Positions 36,083 to 51,597 of a stretch of 64,000 nt of DNA are shown here, piece after piece. Every line of letters begins with the position of its first letter. Positions within the stretch are counted from its first letter, which is position 1. This DNA is from Candidatus Aminicenantes bacterium. GTDB lineage: Bacteria > Acidobacteriota > Aminicenantia > Aminicenantales > UBA4085. The translations under genes and the position numbers were made by a program. The notes under the pieces were generated by a model. That model searched no databases. It was not told the DNA's origin and saw nothing but the letters and a program-made list of their open reading frames with translations. The DNA is taken from positions 571 to 64,570 of the forward strand of contig JAPKZI010000044.1 in assembly GCA_026393865.1 (NCBI GenBank), in the 5' to 3' direction.

Positions 36083-36562
36083 ATGCCGTTCATGCACAGA
36101 CGCAGGCTCATCAAGGAGATCGATCCCGGTCGGATTCAGGCGGCCATCCAGGCCGCCGAGAAAAAAACGTCGGGGGAGATCCGCGTCTCTGTTTCGCCGT
36201 TTTTCTGGGGGAGCGTCCGTCCGGTCGCGGAAAAAGCTTTTCAGCGGCTGGGGATGACGAATACCAGGCAGAGGAACGGCATTCTTTTCTTCATCGTCCC
36301 CTCCCGCCGCCGATTCGTCATACTCGGAGACGAAGGCATCCACGCCGGGGTCGGCCAGGATTTCTGGGACCATTTGACGGCCGTTATGTCCGCGGAATTT
36401 CGCAAGGGCCGTTTCCGGGATGGATTGATCAAAGGCATCGAGGAAGTCGGCGAACACCTCGCCGCCCATTTCCCCTACGATCCGGCGGCCGATAAGAACG
36501 AACTCTCCGACGACATCGATTTCGGAAAAACGGGGACTCGAGCAAAAAAGAAATCTCTCTGA
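36083..36562 (+). CDS. TPM-domain protein (cytoplasmic paralogue)
   Basis: 'AEKKTSGEIRVSV', 'NGILFFIVPSRRRFVILGDEGIH'. RBS AGGAGA. Confidence 0.75.
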   Translation: MPFMHRRRLIKEIDPGRIQAAIQAAEKKTSGEIRVSVSPFFWGSVRPVAEKAFQRLGMTNTRQRNGILFFIVPSRRRFVILGDEGIHAGVGQDFWDHLTAVMSAEFRKGRFRDGLIKGIEEVGEHLAAHFPYDPAADKNELSDDIDFGKTGTRAKKKSL

Positions 36563-38125
36563 TCAGCGGATCTCGTATTTCTCCATCATCGGTCCGAATT
36601 TTTTCATCAGCTCTTCATAGAGGTCCAGGGGCGGTTTGGCGTCGGCGGGAAGGAACGGCTTGTAGGGGAACTTTTTGGCATATTCCTCGAATTCGATCCG
36701 CAGTTTTTTCAGTTCCTCCGGCTTCGTCATCAGATCGACGGCCGAAGCGGCGATCGCCTTCGCCCCGGCGTTCAGGCCTTTCCAGGCCGTCGAACCGTAA
36801 TTACAAGCGACGGAGGACCAGTGGTGACCGATGGCCCCGGGAACCTGGCCCGGAAAACGGATCGAGGCCGTCGGCGTGACGAGCGTCACATCGCCGACAT
36901 CGGACGACCCGCCCCCGAAAGATACGCCGCTCGGCGTCCGAAGGTTATCGACTTTAGTCGGCATCCCCTCTTCCCGCGCCTTCAATTCCTTCTGAAGGGC
37001 CTTGGCGAAGGCGTTCTCTTCCTCGGTCCAAACGGGCATGCCGACGAGCTCGATATTCTTCTGGATGAGCTCGGCGGCCGCCTTGTTGCTGTGCGTCTGG
37101 TGGGCGGCGGCGATAAAGCGGGGAGGCAGGAGTTCCGTGCCCGAAGCCAGGGCGCCGGCTTTGGCGCAGCTGAGAACGCGCTCGAACATCTCCTCGACCC
37201 GCTCGTCGCTGTTCCGGACGTAATACCAAACGCTGGCCCGGTCGGGCACGACGTTGGGGGCCTGCCCGCCTTCGGTGATCACGTAGTGCATCCGGTAGGC
37301 CGGGTCGAGATGCTCGCGCAGGAAGTTCGTGGCGATGTCCATAATCTCCACGCCGTCCAAGGCGCTCCGGCCCGCCCAGGCATTGGCCCCGTGGGCGGTC
37401 CTTCCTTTGAAGGAAAAGATGACCGAAAAAACGGCGTTGCCGCCCCGGCCATAGCTCGTCCCGAAGCCGCTGCCGCTGTGGTTGTCGATGACGGCGTCCA
37501 CATCGTTGAAGAGGCCGGCCCGGATCATATGAGGCCGGCTGGCGATGATCTCCTCGGCCGGGGAGCCGAAGACCTTGATCGTCCCTTTGAGGCCGAATTT
37601 GTCCATGGCCTCCTTGACGGCGATGGCCGCGGCCGCGGCCGCGGCGCACATGGCGTTGTGTCCGCAGCCGTGCCCAGGCGCGCCCGACACAAGCGGGTCC
37701 TGCGCCGGAACGCGTCCTTTTTGGGAGAGCATGGGCAGGGCGTCGAATTCGCCGAGCAGTCCGATCACCGGCTTCCCGGACCCGTAGGAGGCGACGAAGC
37801 AGGTCGGCATGCCGGCCAGACCGCGCTCGACTTTGAACCCGGCCTGCTCGAGCGTATCGGCCAGGAGCTTGGACGATTTGACCTCCTGAAGGCCGAGCTC
37901 GGCGTACGACCAGATCGAATCAGAGATCCGGCCGAATTTTTCCACGACCGGAGGCTGGCCGAGCCAGTCGAGGACGAACTGTTTTTCCTTGGCGACCTTA
38001 ACCTTGGCCCTTGCTTGCGCGGAGGGCAGAGCAACGCTCGCCGGGGCCTGGCCGAAGGAGATCGACAGACACAGGACGAGGACGAGACCCGCCAACGCGG
38101 GCCGGGACAAGGCGTTTGTTTTCAT
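36563..38125 (-). CDS. Secreted M20-family amidohydrolase (AbgB / aminobenzoyl-glutamate hydrolase subunit B-like)
   Basis: Signal peptide 'MKTNALSRPALAGLVLVLCLSISFGQAPA'. 'GHGCGHNAMCAA', 'FGSPAEE', 'GRTAHGANAW' metal and dimerisation blocks. Confidence 0.75.
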   Translation of the reverse strand: MKTNALSRPALAGLVLVLCLSISFGQAPASVALPSAQARAKVKVAKEKQFVLDWLGQPPVVEKFGRISDSIWSYAELGLQEVKSSKLLADTLEQAGFKVERGLAGMPTCFVASYGSGKPVIGLLGEFDALPMLSQKGRVPAQDPLVSGAPGHGCGHNAMCAAAAAAAIAVKEAMDKFGLKGTIKVFGSPAEEIIASRPHMIRAGLFNDVDAVIDNHSGSGFGTSYGRGGNAVFSVIFSFKGRTAHGANAWAGRSALDGVEIMDIATNFLREHLDPAYRMHYVITEGGQAPNVVPDRASVWYYVRNSDERVEEMFERVLSCAKAGALASGTELLPPRFIAAAHQTHSNKAAAELIQKNIELVGMPVWTEEENAFAKALQKELKAREEGMPTKVDNLRTPSGVSFGGGSSDVGDVTLVTPTASIRFPGQVPGAIGHHWSSVACNYGSTAWKGLNAGAKAIAASAVDLMTKPEELKKLRIEFEEYAKKFPYKPFLPADAKPPLDLYEELMKKFGPMMEKYEIR

Positions 38126-38256
38126 ATTCCCTCCCGGAAAAAGTTTCGCGGCCGCGGTTCATTCCCCGATGATCTTGACCAGGATCCGCTTCCGGCGCCG
38201 GGTGCTTTTCATGCGGCAGGGGCCAGCTTATACCAGGCGGATTTTTGTTGTCAAAT

Positions 38257-38283
38257 GTCATCCTGAGCGAAGCGAAGGATCTC
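38257..38283. other. Copy of the short 'GTCATCCTGAGCGAAGCGAAGGATCTC' hairpin element
   Basis: ATCCT-gagcgaagcga-AGGAT stem-loop in an intergenic region. It translates to the 'SFASLRMT' / 'HPERSEGS' peptides that head many spurious small ORFs in databases (recollection). Confidence 0.4.
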
Positions 38284-38306
38284 ATTCAACTTTGTTGAGG
38301 TCGCGC

Positions 38307-38335
38307 TTGACAAGGGTCAGACTTGTCCGTAAAAT
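38307..38335 (+). promoter_or_regulatory. sigma70-like promoter of the TetR-efflux operon with overlapping palindrome (candidate TetR operator)
   Basis: TTGACA (38307-38312), 17-nt spacer, TAAAAT (38330-38335). Inverted repeat GACAAG (38309-38314) / CTTGTC (38322-38327) lies within it. Confidence 0.5.
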
Positions 38336-38370
38336 GACCAACTGGTAATTAACTGACCGGAGAGTCGAAA

Positions 38371-38982
38371 ATGGGCATCAAAGAGCGACGGGGACGCGAA
38401 GAAAAAGCGCGCCTGACGTCGATCATCGCCGCGGCCGAGAACGTCTTCGCCGAGCGCGGCTACCACCAGGCCCGGATGGACGACATCGCCGAGGCGGCCG
38501 AGCTGGCCAAAGGAACTCTTTATTATTACTTCAAGAGCAAGGACGAAATCTATGTCCACCTGCTGGAGCGGGAAGGACGGAAGGTCCATGATGAGGTCCG
38601 GACCCGAATCACCGAGACGTCGACCTTTATCGAGGCCCTCCAGCAGACCCTCGATTTCTACCTCGAGTATTTCGACAAGAACCAAGGTTTCCTGAAGATG
38701 TTCCTGCCCTGCATGTTCGGGTTCGTCCGCTTCGAGGGCGACGAGACGTTCAAAGAGTCGGCCAAGATCTACGAATTACACGGCGACTTTATCCGGGATA
38801 TCCTCAAGCGGAAGATAACCCGGGAGAAAGTGCCCTTCGCCCTGGATGAGCTTCTCAAGTTCATCAAAACCCTGCAGATCGGCATCGGGATCAAACTGCT
38901 CGAGGGCCACAAGGCCGAAGCCGAAGCGGCTGCCCATTTCTTCATCGGTCTCATTAAACGCGTAATGGAGGAATCGAAATGA
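38371..38982 (+). CDS. TetR/AcrR family transcriptional regulator
   Basis: N-terminal HTH '[32 protein letters not shown]'. Confidence 0.88.
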
Positions 38983-45622: not shown

Positions 45623-47806
45623 CTAAGGGAGCGGAGGACGATCTTTTCGCCGCAGAACGAGAAAAAGCAATCCGAACGCGTTCGCCAGAAACAAATATTC
45701 AAAAAGGACGGGCAGTCCGGCCAGCGGGACGAGGATCGCCGACAGTCCCACGGCGGCCGCGCACGATCCCAGGAGATCCCACCCGTATCCCAGCCCGGCC
45801 TGTCCCTTGTCCTTGAAAAAGAGCCTGTTGGAGACGATGAAAAAATCCCCTCCCAGATAGCCTAAAACGAAGAGCAGGGCGAAGGGAACGATCGGCGGCG
45901 GTCGATAGTCCAGGGCGAGTCGCATGGTCAGGACGACGAGCAGCAGCCCGGACTGCAGGAGCACGATGTGCCGATCGCGGAGCCGTCCGCGTTTGGCCCC
46001 GACCAGCGCTCCCAGCGCCAACCCCGTCATGAACGCGGCCAGGATCAGGGCGACCTGACGGTAGAGGAATCCATACAGGGCTTGGAACCAGATGAGGATC
46101 ATGATCTCGCCGGCCATCGTGGTCAGGCCCATGAGGGCGATGGGAACGGCCGAAATCGCGGATCTTCGCCCCCTCCCTCCGATGAAGGCGAGGAGCCCGA
46201 CGAAGACAAGGAACGGAACGCCCAGCAGCCAGGGGACGGGGATCCGGGCCAGGCCGAGAAGAACCTTCGATTCGAGGCTTTTGAACTGCGTGCTCCAGAG
46301 AACGGAATTGAAGAAATAGCTGATGGGACGGAGGTCCGAGTTCAATCCCGCCGGCCCCGCATCGATCTTCATACGAAGGGCCTCGACCCGCAGGGGATGG
46401 AGACGCGCCGGAAGCCGTTCCGGCGTCACGTAGCGGTTCTTCAGGCCGAACCGCCGCATCGTCCCGATCAGGTCCTCGGCCTCCACCGTCAGCGGCCCGG
46501 CGGATGCCAGGAAAACGTTGGAATCTCCGGGGACGACCTTGACCACGGGGAACGCCTGCCGCAAGGTGTTGGCCATGACCGAGAGAAATTTTTGAAGCTC
46601 CGGACCGATATAGTTTTCGGCCGACGGCACGCGGAACGAGAAGACCCCGCCCTCGGCCAGCTTGTCTCGAACACGAGCGAAGAATTCCCGCGTGTAGAAC
46701 CGGTTGATCTGGGCGGTGGCCGGTTCAGGCAGGTTAAGGATAACGGCGTCATAGACGGCCGGGGTCTCTTCCAAGAACGCCCGGCCGTCGTCATAAACGA
46801 GATGAGCCCGCGGGTTTCGAAGGGATCCTTTCTCGGCGTCGGGCTGGAAGATCTCGGACAGCCGGATGATCTCGGGATCGAGCTCGACGTAATCCACGTC
46901 GGTCCGGGGATATTTGAGAATCTCGGCCAGGCTTCCGCCGGCGCCGCCGCCGATCAACAGGACCCGCCCGGCCTCAGGCCTCTGGAGCAGGGCGAAATGC
47001 ACGGATTCCTCGGCCGCGTCGAGGTCGGGGAAGGAGTAGACACGGAGCGAGTTGTCGTAAAGGGTGAACTGCTCGGACGTTCGAATGACCTGCAGCTTGC
47101 CGTAAAGGCTGTCCTTCGTCCGGACGAGGGCGAAAGGCCGCCAAGCGAGCTTTTGGGCCGGAAGGTCGGAAAAGAAAAGAGCGGCGTGGACAACCAAGAC
47201 GAGAGTGAAGGCGATGGCCGCCTTCCTGCCGTTCAACAAGAAAAACACAGCCGCCGCCGAGGCCGCCCCGATGACGGCCAGCGCCTGCCAATTGGACAGC
47301 AGGGGGATGAGGGTGAGATAGGTCAGGAGGCCGCCCGCGGCGGCGCCGATCGATTCCCAGAGATAGACCCGGGGCAGGTGACCTTCGTCCTTGACCGTGA
47401 AAACGAAGATCGCCCCCAGAGGAAAATTCAGGAAGAAAGAGAGAACGACGGCGAAGAGAAGGATCGGCCCGAGACCGATCAACTCGCCCGGCAAAATGCC
47501 TAGGAAGAAGCGGGAAAACCGCAGAGCGGCGAAACAGCCGGGGGCGACGAGCAGGACGCCGAAAAAAAGGACCGCCAATCCCTTTCTCCCGGGCTCCCGC
47601 CCCGAAGCCCACAGGCTCCCGCATCCGCCCCACAAGAGCCAAGAGGCCAGGACGAGCCCGAAGACCAGTTCGTTGCCGTAGAACTGGGCCGCGAATTCCC
47701 TGAGGAGAAAGATCTGGAGCGAGGCGGCCAGCAGGCCGAGGAGCAAGGCCGGCGGAGAGAACCTCAGGTCCAGATTCCCGGGACCCGATGCTGACAATTT
47801 GGACAC
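45623..47806 (-). CDS. Polytopic membrane protein with central spermidine-synthase-like (SpeE-fold) domain, catalytic motifs degenerate
   Basis: Multiple TM helices on both sides of 'RVLLIGGGAGGSLAEILKYPRTDVDYVELDPEII...YDAVILNLPEP...FYTREFF'. Start uncertain: GTG 47806 (43-nt overlap with the upstream gene) is preferred over ATG 47881/47872 (about 110-nt overlap). Confidence 0.65.
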   Translation of the reverse strand: MSKLSASGPGNLDLRFSPPALLLGLLAASLQIFLLREFAAQFYGNELVFGLVLASWLLWGGCGSLWASGREPGRKGLAVLFFGVLLVAPGCFAALRFSRFFLGILPGELIGLGPILLFAVVLSFFLNFPLGAIFVFTVKDEGHLPRVYLWESIGAAAGGLLTYLTLIPLLSNWQALAVIGAASAAAVFFLLNGRKAAIAFTLVLVVHAALFFSDLPAQKLAWRPFALVRTKDSLYGKLQVIRTSEQFTLYDNSLRVYSFPDLDAAEESVHFALLQRPEAGRVLLIGGGAGGSLAEILKYPRTDVDYVELDPEIIRLSEIFQPDAEKGSLRNPRAHLVYDDGRAFLEETPAVYDAVILNLPEPATAQINRFYTREFFARVRDKLAEGGVFSFRVPSAENYIGPELQKFLSVMANTLRQAFPVVKVVPGDSNVFLASAGPLTVEAEDLIGTMRRFGLKNRYVTPERLPARLHPLRVEALRMKIDAGPAGLNSDLRPISYFFNSVLWSTQFKSLESKVLLGLARIPVPWLLGVPFLVFVGLLAFIGGRGRRSAISAVPIALMGLTTMAGEIMILIWFQALYGFLYRQVALILAAFMTGLALGALVGAKRGRLRDRHIVLLQSGLLLVVLTMRLALDYRPPPIVPFALLFVLGYLGGDFFIVSNRLFFKDKGQAGLGYGWDLLGSCAAAVGLSAILVPLAGLPVLFEYLFLANAFGLLFLVLRRKDRPPLP

Positions 47807-48885
47807 GTTCCTTGCCTCAGATCGTTCCTGACGATCTTGTAGCCGCTTCTTTCGATGACCATCTTCCGGCATTTCGGACAAAAGGTGTTCTCCCCTTCGT
47901 GGCCCGGGATGTTCCCGGTGTAGACGTAGCGGAGACCCTCTTGGAGGGCGGTCTGGCGGAGCTTTTCAAGGGTCGAGATAGGCGTCGGGGGGAGGTTCTT
48001 GATGAGATACATGGGATGGAACCGGGTGAAGTGGAGCGGGACTTCCGGCCCGATCTCCCGATGGAGCCACTGGGTCATCTTCCGGACGTCCTCGACGGCG
48101 TCGTTCAACGTCGGAATGACGAGGTAGACGATTTCCAACCAGATCCCGGCTTGGGCGATGATCTTGATGGCCTCGAGGACCGGTTTCAATTCGCCCCGGA
48201 CGTACGTCCTATAGAAGTCCTCGTCGAAGGACTTAAGATCGATCTTGATGGCCTCCACGACCTTCGTCAGGGCTTCGAGGGGCTCGGGGTTGATATGCCC
48301 GCCCGAGACCACGACGCTCCGGACGCCTTGGCGCTTGGCTTCGACGGCGGTGTCGACCATATATTCATAAAAAACCGTCGGCTCGGAATATGTGTAAGCG
48401 ACGGTGGGACAGCGATATTTGACCGCCGCGTCGGCGACGGCGCGGGGAGGGAAGTCCAAGGCTTGGACCTGCTCCGGCCGGACCTGCGAGATCTCCCAAT
48501 TCTGGCAGAACTTGCAATGAACGTTGCAGCCGGCCGTGGCGATGGACAGGGCGTCCGACCCCGGCAGGACGTGGAAAAAGGGTTTTTTTTCGATGGGATC
48601 GACGTTGACCGAGCAGGCTTTGCCGTAGACGAGCGTGTAATATGTCCCGCCCTCGTTCTGGCGGACGCCGCAGTAGCCTCGCTCCTTATCGCCCAGCTTG
48701 CAGCGTCGGGGACAGAGGCCGCATTCGATCTCCCGGTCGGCCAGGCGCTTGTAATAGCGCGCCTCGACATGGGACAGGTTGACCGTCTGGCCGAAGGCGT
48801 AGAGATGATGAAGCGCCGGCCCGGGATCCGCGCTCAGAACGGCTCCCGCGCCCGCCGCGGTCCGGAAGAAAATACGTCTTTTCAT
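47764..48885 (-). CDS. AmmeMemoRadiSam-system-type radical SAM enzyme (AmrS/PflA-like) with twin-arginine signal
   Basis: 'CGLCPRRCKLGDKERGYCGVRQN', 'NVDPIEKKPFFHVLPGS', radical SAM box 'GCNVHCKFCQNWEISQ'. N-terminus 'MKRRIFFRTAAGAGAVLSA' is Tat-like. Confidence 0.8.
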   Translation of the reverse strand: MKRRIFFRTAAGAGAVLSADPGPALHHLYAFGQTVNLSHVEARYYKRLADREIECGLCPRRCKLGDKERGYCGVRQNEGGTYYTLVYGKACSVNVDPIEKKPFFHVLPGSDALSIATAGCNVHCKFCQNWEISQVRPEQVQALDFPPRAVADAAVKYRCPTVAYTYSEPTVFYEYMVDTAVEAKRQGVRSVVVSGGHINPEPLEALTKVVEAIKIDLKSFDEDFYRTYVRGELKPVLEAIKIIAQAGIWLEIVYLVIPTLNDAVEDVRKMTQWLHREIGPEVPLHFTRFHPMYLIKNLPPTPISTLEKLRQTALQEGLRYVYTGNIPGHEGENTFCPKCRKMVIERSGYKIVRNDLRQGTCPNCQHRVPGIWT

Positions 48886-48901: not shown

Positions 48902-49798
48902 TCAGGCCGTTTCCTCGACGATCTGGATCCCCGAAAGCGTCGCCGTTCCCAGCCCCATCCGTTCCGCCGTCCGGAGATAGAGCGGCGCCCGCTTGTCTTC
49001 TTCCAAAGAGGGAAGCCCTTTCGCTTTCCGGAGATCCTCGACGATCCGCCAACCGACGAAATCCGCCGCCACGGGGTCCAGGCTGAAGATCAACGCTTCA
49101 TAGGTTTCCGCCCAGCGGGCGTGGTAGGAAGGGCCTCGATGGTATTGAACGACCAGGGCGTCCAGGATCGTCAACCGGTGTTTCGATTTGATCGACGGAG
49201 CGTCGAAGAGCTCGGCGATGAAGGGATTGCAGTTGTCGTCATGGTATTTGTTGGGATTATGGACGGCGCCATAATAGTTTTTCAAGCCGGCCGTGATCCC
49301 GGCCATCCCATGGTCTTTCAATACGGCCAGGCTGACCGAAGCGGTGACGAAGCTCGACTGGATGGCCGAGAACAGGCTCCCGATGTTGAGATGAGTGATC
49401 GGCTCGCCGGGGTAGCCCATACCGGCCGTGTCCGTCCCCATGATCTGAAAGACATCACCGCCGGAATTCAGGCGGTATCGAGCTTCCTTGAGCTCGCGGT
49501 TCGTCCGATCCCAGACGACGATCTGTCTCTCTCGGATCCCCGCCGCGACCATGAGGCGGGCGAGGGGCAAGCTGACTTCGGGGGGCGTTGTGAGCTCGGG
49601 AGCGGCTATGGCGTTGACCTTGATCCCGATGCGATCGGCAGGCGCGAAGATCGTCCGCAACCCCGCAACGCTATTGTTCTGGCCGGTGAGAAGACGGAAG
49701 CCGCGCTCGTACATGTTTGCGAGGACCTTCGGCTCGACCTCGCCTTTTCGCGGTATAACCCCTTTTCCCCGGACGATCACGACCTTTGAAGCGGCCAT
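48902..49798 (-). CDS. DUF362 domain protein
   Basis: 'KVVIVRGKG...RIGIKVNAIAAPELTTPPEVSLPLARLMVAAGI...IVVWDR' matches the DUF362 N-terminal pattern. ATG 49798 lies 7 nt after a TAATTT box. An alternative TTG is at 49807. Confidence 0.65.
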   Translation of the reverse strand: MAASKVVIVRGKGVIPRKGEVEPKVLANMYERGFRLLTGQNNSVAGLRTIFAPADRIGIKVNAIAAPELTTPPEVSLPLARLMVAAGIRERQIVVWDRTNRELKEARYRLNSGGDVFQIMGTDTAGMGYPGEPITHLNIGSLFSAIQSSFVTASVSLAVLKDHGMAGITAGLKNYYGAVHNPNKYHDDNCNPFIAELFDAPSIKSKHRLTILDALVVQYHRGPSYHARWAETYEALIFSLDPVAADFVGWRIVEDLRKAKGLPSLEEDKRAPLYLRTAERMGLGTATLSGIQIVEETA

Positions 49799-49805
49799 CG
49801 ATGTC

Positions 49806-49835
49806 AAATTACCCCAGCCGGTCGAGACTTGTCAA
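49806..49835 (-). promoter_or_regulatory. sigma70-like promoter of the DUF362/radical SAM/SpeE-like operon (leaderless configuration)
   Basis: Minus strand: TTGACA (49835-49830), 18-nt spacer, TAATTT (49811-49806), 7 nt, then ATG 49798. Confidence 0.4.
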
Positions 49836-49890: not shown

Positions 49891-50802
49891 ATGGAGAGGA
49901 AGATGTCGAGAAAAGAAATCGTCTTGATCCTGGCCCTGGCGGCGGCGCTCAATTCGCCGGCGCCGGGGGCTCAAAAAATCGGGGCGTCGTCCCTGACGTC
50001 GCTTCTTCCCCAGGTGGCCAATTGGAAGGCCGCGGAGGGCGTCCAGCGCTATGGTCCGGAAACCCTTTACGAGTTCATCGACGGGGCGGCCGAGGCGTAT
50101 ATCAGCTACGATTTCAAGGAGTTGATCGTCGCCGAGTTCCAGGGCGGCCGGACGAAAACGTCCTTGACGACCGAGATCTACGACATGGGATCGGAGCTGA
50201 ACGCGTTCGGCATCTACAGCGCCGAGCGCTTTTCCGAAAGCCGTTTCATCCCGATCGGCGTTCAAGGCTACCTCGAAGAGGGGACCTTGAATTTCCTGGC
50301 CGGCCGCTATTACGTCAAACTGATGTGCTATGAGGGCGGCGGCCAAACCGAGGGATTCCTGAAGCTTTTTGCCGAAGCCATCGTCGACAAGATCAATAAC
50401 CCGGGAGGTTTTCCGGTTCTCCTGCGGGCCTTCCCGAAGGACGGGCTCGTCGCCAACAGCGAAAAGTTCATCCTGCGCAATGTCATGGGGTTCAAGTTCC
50501 TGAAGAACGGGTTCATCGCCGGCTATCGGCAGGCCGGTCAGGAATTCGACGCCTTCCTCATCGACGGAAGGACCGCCGACGAAGCGGACGCCATGCTGAA
50601 GCAATATCTGGATAATTTCATCAAGAGCGGGCAGGCCGCCGACAAGCGGTCGTACGGAGTGCATGTCAAGGATGCTTATCTAAAGCACGTCTTCGTGGCC
50701 AAAGCGGGTTCCTATATCTGCGGCGTGACCAAGATCAAGGACGGCCAGGACGCTCTGGGAGAGAAAGTCCTGGCGGCGCTGGTCAACGGCTTGAAAAAAT
50801 AG
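49891..50802 (+). CDS. Hypothetical secreted protein
   Basis: RBS AGGAG. Signal peptide 'RKEIVLILALAAALNSPAPGAQ'. 'GPETLYEFIDGAAEAYISYDF' and 'AFGIYSAERF' blocks recall an exported DUF family, but I cannot name it with confidence. Confidence 0.5.
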   Translation: MERKMSRKEIVLILALAAALNSPAPGAQKIGASSLTSLLPQVANWKAAEGVQRYGPETLYEFIDGAAEAYISYDFKELIVAEFQGGRTKTSLTTEIYDMGSELNAFGIYSAERFSESRFIPIGVQGYLEEGTLNFLAGRYYVKLMCYEGGGQTEGFLKLFAEAIVDKINNPGGFPVLLRAFPKDGLVANSEKFILRNVMGFKFLKNGFIAGYRQAGQEFDAFLIDGRTADEADAMLKQYLDNFIKSGQAADKRSYGVHVKDAYLKHVFVAKAGSYICGVTKIKDGQDALGEKVLAALVNGLKK

Positions 50803-50931: not shown

Positions 50932-51597
50932 TTATCCGGGCTGGATGATTTTGGAGCGGCGGGACGATTCGGCGATCCGGGCGAATTGTTCGGTCAAGTG
51001 CTCGAGATAAGCCCGACCCTGGAAATTCTTCCTCGTCCAAAAGCGCGCCGCCAGGATCAGGCGGTCCAGGCACTGGAACTTCTCCTCGCTCTTGTAGCCG
51101 TCCCCCGCGGCCGTCAGGATCAGACCGCCCTCGTACGTGCAGTTCTGCAGGCTCCGGAAGACCATCTCGCCGGCGTCGTTTCGCGAGGTCCGCTCTTCTC
51201 CCGGCAGCAGGATGAGATTCCGGCCCCTGGACAGCTTGTCCTTGGCGTATTCGAGGGCGAGGATGGCCTCGCCGTCGGTGAACGCCGGATCACGTTCGCC
51301 GATCTCTTTGAGCGGAGCCTCGATGTTCAGCGCCAGCCAGGCGGTCCGCTCGTCCTTCCAGGGATCGTCCGGGGGACGTCCCGGGCGCGCCGGCGGAGCC
51401 GGCTTCTTTTCCAGGATCTTTTTTTCCCGGTAGGGTTTGTGTTCGGCCAGGAAACGGCAGGCGGGCGGGCAGGCGACCTCCCTACCGCGCATGATCCCGC
51501 AGCACAGAGGGCAGAGGTCGCTCCTCAGACCGGGACAGCGGCGCTTGGCTTTTCTTTGACGGCAACGGGAGCACTTGACCATGGGCCGACAGATCAC
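50932..51597 (-). CDS. Hypothetical protein with N-terminal 8-Cys zinc-ribbon-like cluster
   Basis: GTG 51597 overlaps the rnc stop (GTGA); alternative ATG 51582. Pattern C-x2-C-x8-C-x7-C-x2-CC-x9-C-x3-C within the first ~50 residues. The rest is a soluble alpha-helical-looking domain. Confidence 0.5.
   Translation of the reverse strand: MICRPMVKCSRCRQRKAKRRCPGLRSDLCPLCCGIMRGREVACPPACRFLAEHKPYREKKILEKKPAPPARPGRPPDDPWKDERTAWLALNIEAPLKEIGERDPAFTDGEAILALEYAKDKLSRGRNLILLPGEERTSRNDAGEMVFRSLQNCTYEGGLILTAAGDGYKSEEKFQCLDRLILAARFWTRKNFQGRAYLEHLTEQFARIAESSRRSKIIQPG

Follow-up and report, generated by a model that had tools for sequence, protein, structure and literature searches.

Radical S-adenosylmethionine (SAM) enzymes are regarded as acting strictly within the cytoplasm; they need SAM, a low-potential electron donor and oxygen-sensitive clusters. 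A fundamental question is then how to understand a radical SAM enzyme that begins with a peptide resembling a signal for export by the twin-arginine translocation (Tat) pathway. The question is raised by a gene on the minus strand (47764..48885) of a 64,000-nucleotide stretch of DNA from Candidatus Aminicenantes bacterium (assembly GCA_026393865.1, contig JAPKZI010000044.1, positions 571 to 64,570), referred to here in its entirety as the window. The gene encodes an AmrS-type radical SAM enzyme of 373 residues with an N-terminal Tat-type leader. Comparison of its sequence with those of its relatives indicates that this enzyme most likely belongs to a distinct branch of AmmeMemoRadiSam radical SAM enzymes that is exported. 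We consider it likely that the leader is a working Tat signal and that the protein is exported; that the exported enzyme also turns over SAM outside the cytoplasm is a plausible claim that we make more tentatively.

The leader and the enzyme behind it

A profile search assigns the protein to TIGR04337, the AmmeMemoRadiSam radical SAM enzyme, with 382.3 bits against a cut-off of 220 over residues 42-372, and a Pfam search returns the Radical_SAM domain PF04055 with 71.7 bits. The radical SAM motif CX3CX2C (C120, C124 and C127; 48505..48528, on the minus strand like every feature of this gene) is invariant in the homologue alignment A1 and sits in the pattern FCQNW[EQ]IS that is common to all related loci. 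Two other Cys sets are also invariant in A1, namely an N-terminal set comprising C55, C58, C62 and C72 (48670..48723), which is a candidate auxiliary cluster site, and a C-terminal CxxC...CxxC arrangement of zinc-ribbon or rubredoxin-like appearance (C336, C339, C361 and C364; 47794..47880). An AlphaFold2 (AF2) model is confident for the core from about residue 40 and places beta hairpins at residues 342-354, within the C-terminal Cys module. The closest solved fold is that of pyruvate formate-lyase activating enzyme (PFL-AE; 3cb8, TMt 0.81), which is also the closest sequence in the PDB (3cb8 and 3c8f, E ~1e-4). An earlier, sequence-only reading had described a complete FeS/radical SAM core following the leader, and both the extent of the TIGR04337 match and the invariance of all Cys motifs agree with that description.

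Ahead of the family core lies a 41-residue extension, MKRRIFFRTAAGAGAVLSADPG. The open reading frame (ORF) is opened by the ATG at 48885 (MKRRIFFRTAAGAGAVLSADPGPALHHLYAFGQTVNLSHVEARYY... / MKRRIFFRTAAGAGAVLSADPGPALHHLYAFGQTVNLSHVEARYYKRL...), and within codons 1-60 there is no ATG, GTG or TTG beyond codon 1, which leaves ATG 48885 as the sole possible start. Because the family profile starts at residue 42 and no alternative start exists, the twin-arginine (RR) peptide must be translated whenever the core is made. The sequence-only reading had named two outcomes that would overturn it, a non-Tat score from signal predictors and a true start downstream of the RR peptide; such a start was rejected, as no start codon stands between the peptide and the family core.

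The extension has the layout of a Tat signal. Residues 1-8, MKRRIFFR, form the n-region and twin-arginine motif (48862..48885), of which R3, R4 and F6 are invariant in A1; residues 9-19, TAAGAGAVLSA, form an uncharged, Ala/Gly-rich h-region bounded by R8 and D20 (48829..48861); and residues 20-32, DPGPALHHLYAFG, are a c-region candidate (48790..48828). The sequence-only reading had already pointed to RR-x-F-F-R and a short Ala/Gly-rich h-region, close to the S/T-RRxFLK Tat consensus, and K-R-R-I-F-F-R is indeed read at residues 2-8; the span that it gave, 48826..48885, correctly covers residues 1-20, although the 22 residues that it quoted reach 48820. By the -3/-1 rule, signal peptidase could cleave at LSA|D or AFG|Q. 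In the AF2 model residues 1-34 are unpacked, with predicted local distance difference test (pLDDT) values of 35-38 and a helix at residues 4-17 of low confidence, and the modelled segment has the appearance of a detachable leader.

How often the RR pair recurs within the family had also been raised by the sequence-only reading. The 120 best homologues (65-86% identity, mostly from Candidatus Aminicenantes metagenome-assembled genomes (MAGs), and nearly all 373-380 residues long) carry RR in all cases except one, and this single exception (119/120 have the pair) is an N-terminally truncated sequence. The leader consensus is M-(K/N/D/E)-R-R-x-F-(F/L)-(K/R)-(T/A)-(A/T)-G-A-G, in agreement with the textbook S/T-RRxFLK motif and the run rich in Ala and Gly that comes after it. 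Within the first 36 residues of A1, R3, R4 and F6 are the sole invariant positions, and the mature part is densely invariant. All six synonymous Arg codons occur at the RR positions among relatives; because the codons vary synonymously, the RR pair is under selection at the amino-acid level. A chance occurrence of the motif was rejected on the basis of this conservation together with the synonymous codon variation.

Leader types across the family and the Tat machinery

The source genome contains a second TIGR04337 gene, on contig C13, whose product begins at the core (MIREAMLYKAF...) and has no leader. A library of representatives clustered at 50% identity was searched for relatives. Of the top 150 matches, 32 have clear RR leaders located 40-55 residues before the core, 69 start at the core, and others have transmembrane (TM) anchors, lipoboxes or long N-terminal fusions. 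In a maximum-likelihood tree all 32 RR-type rows fall on one side of a split with 93% support by the Shimodaira-Hasegawa-like approximate likelihood ratio test (SH-aLRT). The TM-anchored, lipobox and N-terminally fused forms group with the RR-type rows, and the canonical short forms together with the C13 paralogue are opposite. By this sequence comparison the leader-bearing forms are one deep half of the family tree, spread over more than 20 phyla. The catalytic core is retained in the leader-bearing half, since 49 of the 64 columns conserved in the canonical half are kept there (at least 80%).

A side observation concerns gene copy number at two related loci, one in a Nitrospiraceae MAG and one in an Omnitrophota MAG (the pair L096 and L101). 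At these loci the sequence just upstream of the matched radical SAM gene ends in ..CPKC..., ..CPQC..., resembling an AmrS-type C-terminus, and this arrangement suggests tandem AmrS-type copies.

Does the type of leader follow the presence of the Tat machinery? Covariation was assessed over the 80 best loci on contigs from one genome per species, a sample spanning more than 20 phyla, with an Altiarchaeota archaeon among its members. Of these loci, about 58 have an RR or KR leader, about 19, mostly from Omnitrophota, have a general secretory (Sec), TM or lipobox type of N-terminus, and 3 are unclear. A search for TatC was positive in 34 of the 36 genomes with the RR/KR-type N-terminus versus 3 of the 19 with the Sec, TM or lipobox type (Fisher's exact test, 4e-9, a value that overstates the case because the genomes are related, they are MAGs and the leaders were sorted by regular expression and by eye before counting). 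The orthologues with Sec or lipobox leaders (for example ..LLTAC and ..LIAC) include L079, L082, L088, L097, L109, L111, L113, L117, L123, L125 and L129, among others, and are mostly from Omnitrophota. At the locus of the Altiarchaeota MAG (L108, 6126..9602), tatC lies directly upstream of the RR-bearing radical SAM gene, and a Memo-AMMECR1 fusion with a lipobox-type signal (..FLVGC) comes after it.

Tat is clearly in use in the lineage of the source organism. A genome scan of the source assembly found RR leaders on the small subunit of a NiFe hydrogenase, which matches TIGR01409, as well as on Rieske-type proteins, several DUF362 proteins and Gfo/Idh/MocA oxidoreductases. TatC itself was found in every one of the 28 high-quality relatives, the same genus included.

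Partner genes and electron-transfer modules

The gene 16 nucleotides upstream of the radical SAM gene (48902..49807, minus strand) encodes a DUF362 protein (PF04015) of 301 residues without a signal peptide. DUF362 has been assigned to the LarA clan (PMC11770544), and a sequence search returned no PDB relative of the protein. This partner lies directly upstream of the radical SAM gene in 28 of 30 Acidobacteriota loci. In Aminicenantia the adjacent DUF362 lacks a signal. At 11 Acidobacteriota loci outside Aminicenantia it begins with an RR leader of its own, and across phyla 21 of 29 adjacent DUF362 genes encode such a leader; four DUF362 paralogues elsewhere in the source genome (contigs C8, C33, C38 and C95) also bear RR leaders. 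Read most simply, the pair would work outside the cytoplasm, and the Aminicenantia DUF362 would ride with the radical SAM enzyme.

Downstream, and overlapping the end of the radical SAM gene, is a gene for a polytopic protein of about 14 TM segments with a central SpeE-like Rossmann domain (45623..47806, minus strand; PF01564, with NF037959 at its cut-off). Its start is uncertain and may be 47806, 47872 or 47881. This membrane gene is kept downstream of the radical SAM gene in relatives. The short Lys/Arg-rich loops of the protein all share one side of the membrane, opposite to that of the SpeE-like domain (residues 243-539 of the longest ORF); since the positive-inside rule puts the Lys/Arg-rich loops inside, the SpeE-like domain is predicted to face outwards. 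The domain carries GGGAGG in the motif RVLLIGGGAGGSL, at the position where spermidine synthases have GGGDGG. If, as we presume, the Asp of GGGDGG excludes the carboxylate of SAM, the SpeE-like domain might bind SAM and not decarboxylated SAM.

The AMMECR1-type and Memo-type partners lie outside the radical SAM operon of the window. A Memo-AMMECR1 fusion of 511 residues is located on another contig of the source genome (C105, 2132..3667) and begins with a Sec signal, MKEKMILFFGALMFLSAAVSFAQA|V (..LSAAVSFAQA|VRKP); it is the sole AMMECR1 domain found in this genome, the assembly of which is 86% complete. Further Memo copies are on contigs C70, without a signal, and C85. In other phyla, Memo-AMMECR1 fusions with signals, DsbD_2 proteins and SpeE-like membrane proteins come after the leader-bearing radical SAM gene, with the Memo-AMMECR1 fusion as the immediately following gene.

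Gene fusions place the enzyme beside electron-transfer modules. Two relatives, P0152 and P0153, consist of one N-terminal TM segment, then an FMN_bind domain with the flavinylation motif D..[ST]GAT and then the radical SAM domain, with no TM segment between the two domains. In other relatives the fusion partner is a NapH/NosR-like or DsbD_2 membrane module, or else a beta-propeller or CBM_11-like domain that follows a signal. At one locus in another phylum a NapH-like polyferredoxin is encoded just upstream of the leader-bearing enzyme. The NosR-like fusions P0129, P0132 and P0139 were tried as a ruler of topology and rejected, as a hydropathy scan found 5-6 TM segments between FMN_bind and the radical SAM domain and left the side ambiguous; topology was therefore judged from the single-TM fusions P0152 and P0153. 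According to a survey of flavinylation, modification of FMN_bind domains by ApbE belongs mainly to extracytosolic electron-transfer biology (PMC8238504). Radical SAM goes unmentioned in the main text of the survey, and among the supplement entries listed there are unrelated PflA-like genes only (PMC8238504).

A related arrangement was observed on source contig C8 (~36297..38929; L012, 1300..3583). There, a DUF362 protein of 298 residues begins with a clear RR leader (MDRRDFLKDMALGGLVAGLG). Its gene overlaps the beginning of one for a NapH-like membrane polyferredoxin, which has two CX3CP and several 4Fe-4S motifs and extends past the end of the contig.

On the other side of the DUF362-radical SAM operon, and divergent from it, lies a gene on the plus strand (49891..50802) for a DUF6599 protein (PF20244) with a Sec-type signal peptide (N-terminus MERKMSRKEIVLILALAAALNSPAPGAQ). 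Three loci of the Aminicenantes type, L050, L052 and L053, keep this neighbour, and weaker matches occur near the radical SAM gene in L058, L063, L068, L069 and L073. Elsewhere in the window, an ORF of 221 residues on the minus strand (50932..51597) with a Cys-rich N-terminus (MICRPMVKCSRCRQRKAKRRCPGLRSDLCPLCCG...) has no match in Pfam or NCBIfam.

Proposed export, its alternatives and known systems

We hypothesize that the enzyme would fold and acquire its iron-sulfur clusters in the cytoplasm and then be transported across the membrane by Tat, and that the signal-less DUF362 encoded just upstream probably travels as its passenger. Once exported, the enzyme would be active on the outer surface of the cytoplasmic membrane. 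Its likely partners there would be the Sec-exported Memo-AMMECR1 fusion and the outward SpeE-like domain in the membrane protein encoded downstream, and the resulting assembly would be an extracytoplasmic version of the AmmeMemoRadiSam system. As to the source of SAM and reductant, about which the sequence-only reading had asked, electrons might be supplied by conduits of the NapH-like, DsbD_2 or FMN_bind type, which are fused or adjacent in relatives, and SAM could either be pre-bound or be delivered by the SpeE-like membrane protein. The fullest form of this proposal, in which radical SAM chemistry outside the cytoplasm has a dedicated supply of electrons through NapH-like, DsbD_2 or FMN_bind modules and of SAM through or from the 14-TM protein, with exported Memo-AMMECR1 and DUF362 helping to modify a component of the envelope in many anaerobic phyla, is possible but doubtful in our estimation.

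Several observations weigh against export or against catalysis outside. The uncharged stretch of the window leader is 11 residues long, compared with a median of 17 among the homologues, of which 91 of 120 have at least 13; TATFIND-type rules call for an uncharged, moderately hydrophobic h-region of 13 or more residues. Neither TIGR01409 nor PF10518 matches the N-terminus of the enzyme at E values up to 10; as controls for these Tat hidden Markov models (HMMs), the hydrogenase small subunit scores 23.3 bits on TIGR01409 and a Tat-bearing DUF362 scores 18.6 bits on PF10518, the latter under the cut-off. Measured by these two sequence tests, h-region length and HMMs, the window leader fails and the clade passes. 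A30 and F31 are at least 90% conserved in the homologue alignment, with the consensus LYAFG after the h-region, and LYAFGQ..NLS is more conserved than typical signal c-regions and may have another role. TatC was not found in the source genome assembly (G000, 86% complete), and neither was an FMN_bind gene. To our knowledge, no periplasmic SAM pool or low-potential periplasmic donor for a radical SAM cluster has been documented. Finally, about 19 of the 80 relatives have Sec or lipobox-type leaders, and TatC was not found in 16 of 19 such genomes. We know of no cluster-insertion route for a 4Fe-4S protein exported unfolded by Sec, yet such export is what these leaders imply for an iron-sulfur enzyme, and the proposal is incomplete in this respect.

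The sequence-only reading had left two branches, namely that the enzyme acts outside the cytoplasmic membrane or that the peptide is an uncleaved anchor or targeting tag. The first has gained from the signals on partner proteins, from relatives in which the enzyme is fused to extracytoplasmic redox modules, and from the way in which the leader type covaries with TatC. The second has lost ground as an anchor: a Rieske-like signal-anchor, with the enzyme outside and its N-terminus tethering it to the membrane, would suit those relatives with strongly hydrophobic N-terminal helices or lipoboxes, which favour a membrane-tethered workplace, as well as the integral membrane nature of the neighbouring SpeE-like partner. 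However, 11 weakly hydrophobic residues followed by DPGP fall short of a bilayer span and are too short for an anchor, and the sites LSA|D and AFG|Q offer plausible -3/-1 cleavage, which makes a retained anchor very improbable. Another hypothesis is that no export takes place and that the RR peptide serves as a tag inside the cell. It might be the remnant of a Tat leader and bind a chaperone or a partner, as is the case in NarG, or it might associate peripherally with the membrane and keep the enzyme at the inner face. The short h-region, the silence of TIGR01409 and PF10518, the unusual conservation of LYAFGQ and the failure to find TatC in the 86%-complete assembly would all fit such a tag, as would the fact that SAM and flavodoxin or ferredoxin are cytoplasmic. 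Yet the NarG remnant leader has lost its RR pair, whereas here RR is held by all homologues but the truncated one, and the full n/h/c layout is kept over more than 20 phyla. Moreover, the partners carry independent RR, Sec or lipobox signals, the leader type tracks TatC, and the fusions set the radical SAM domain beside a flavinylatable FMN_bind domain with no membrane crossing between them. For these reasons we regard a purely cytoplasmic role as unlikely.

An alternative hypothesis accepts Tat export and places the radical SAM chemistry before it, or confines that chemistry to a single event, such that the enzyme modifies a partner, for example DUF362, or loads one SAM, and then carries a hetero-complex across the membrane. 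No periplasmic SAM pool would be necessary, DUF362 is signal-less exactly where the adjacent enzyme keeps its leader, and the nearest fold is that of PFL-AE, which as an activase acts on each protein substrate a single time. In most other phyla, however, DUF362 and Memo-AMMECR1 bear their own signals and need no carrier, the fusions that join the enzyme to FMN_bind, NapH-like and DsbD_2 modules imply that electrons are continually delivered outside, and the outward SpeE-like domain suggests SAM-type chemistry on that side. Export after the chemistry thus also appears improbable to us, and export through Tat of an enzyme that works outside is the reading that we favour.

If true, this reading would mean that a clade in more than 20 phyla, including an archaeon, is targeted outside the cytoplasm, which would overturn the assumption that radical SAM enzymes are confined to the cytoplasm and would imply new trans-membrane routes for SAM and low-potential electrons. 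It would also give a testable cellular location to the long-unexplained trio of AMMECR1, Memo and the radical SAM enzyme, of which AMMECR1 and Memo have human homologues. The versions with Sec or lipobox leaders in genomes without TatC raise the question of how an iron-sulfur enzyme acquires its clusters after Sec export.

The glycyl-radical activases, including PFL-AE (3cb8, 3c8f), share the abridged radical SAM barrel with the window enzyme, which differs from them by its N- and C-terminal Cys modules and its export leader. A function as a glycyl-radical activase was ruled out, as the enzyme scores far below the cut-offs of the activase profiles (TIGR02493, 55.8 versus 231.75; TIGR02494, 47.3 versus 174.35) and no glycyl-radical enzyme partner was seen in its operon; the similarity is one of fold alone. 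Tat substrates that carry cofactors or passengers, such as the subunits of NiFe hydrogenases and DmsAB, resemble the window pair in having an RR leader on a metallo-cofactor protein with a signal-less partner alongside. Glucose-fructose oxidoreductase carries bound NADP through Tat and is a precedent for the export of a tightly bound nucleotide-type cofactor. By analogy with these systems, we infer that the window enzyme could carry both a passenger and a cofactor.

In the literature searched on AmmeMemoRadiSam, on radical SAM together with Tat and on radical SAM in Aminicenantes, we found neither an exported radical SAM enzyme nor a radical SAM protein among documented Tat substrates; in the HXS paper, the periplasmic component is the effector and not the radical SAM enzyme. 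Extracytosolic flavinylated systems of the NapH-like and DsbD type (PMC8238504) are comparable in that FMN_bind domains with the flavinylation motif, NapH-like polyferredoxins and DsbD_2 proteins occur as fusions or neighbours in relatives of the window enzyme. The source genome resembles them in its gene pair of Tat-bearing DUF362 and NapH-like polyferredoxin and differs in that a search for an FMN_bind gene found none. The closest comparison is with the canonical AmmeMemoRadiSam system (TIGR04337, with TIGR04335 of the AMMECR1 type and TIGR04336 of the Memo type), with which the window enzyme shares its core and Cys motifs, and of which Memo and AMMECR1 are both encoded in the source genome. 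What sets the window enzyme apart is a Tat-type leader of 41 residues and its place in a separate deep clade. Its operon partners are DUF362 and the SpeE-like membrane protein and not Memo and AMMECR1, and the Memo-AMMECR1 fusion of the source genome bears a Sec signal.

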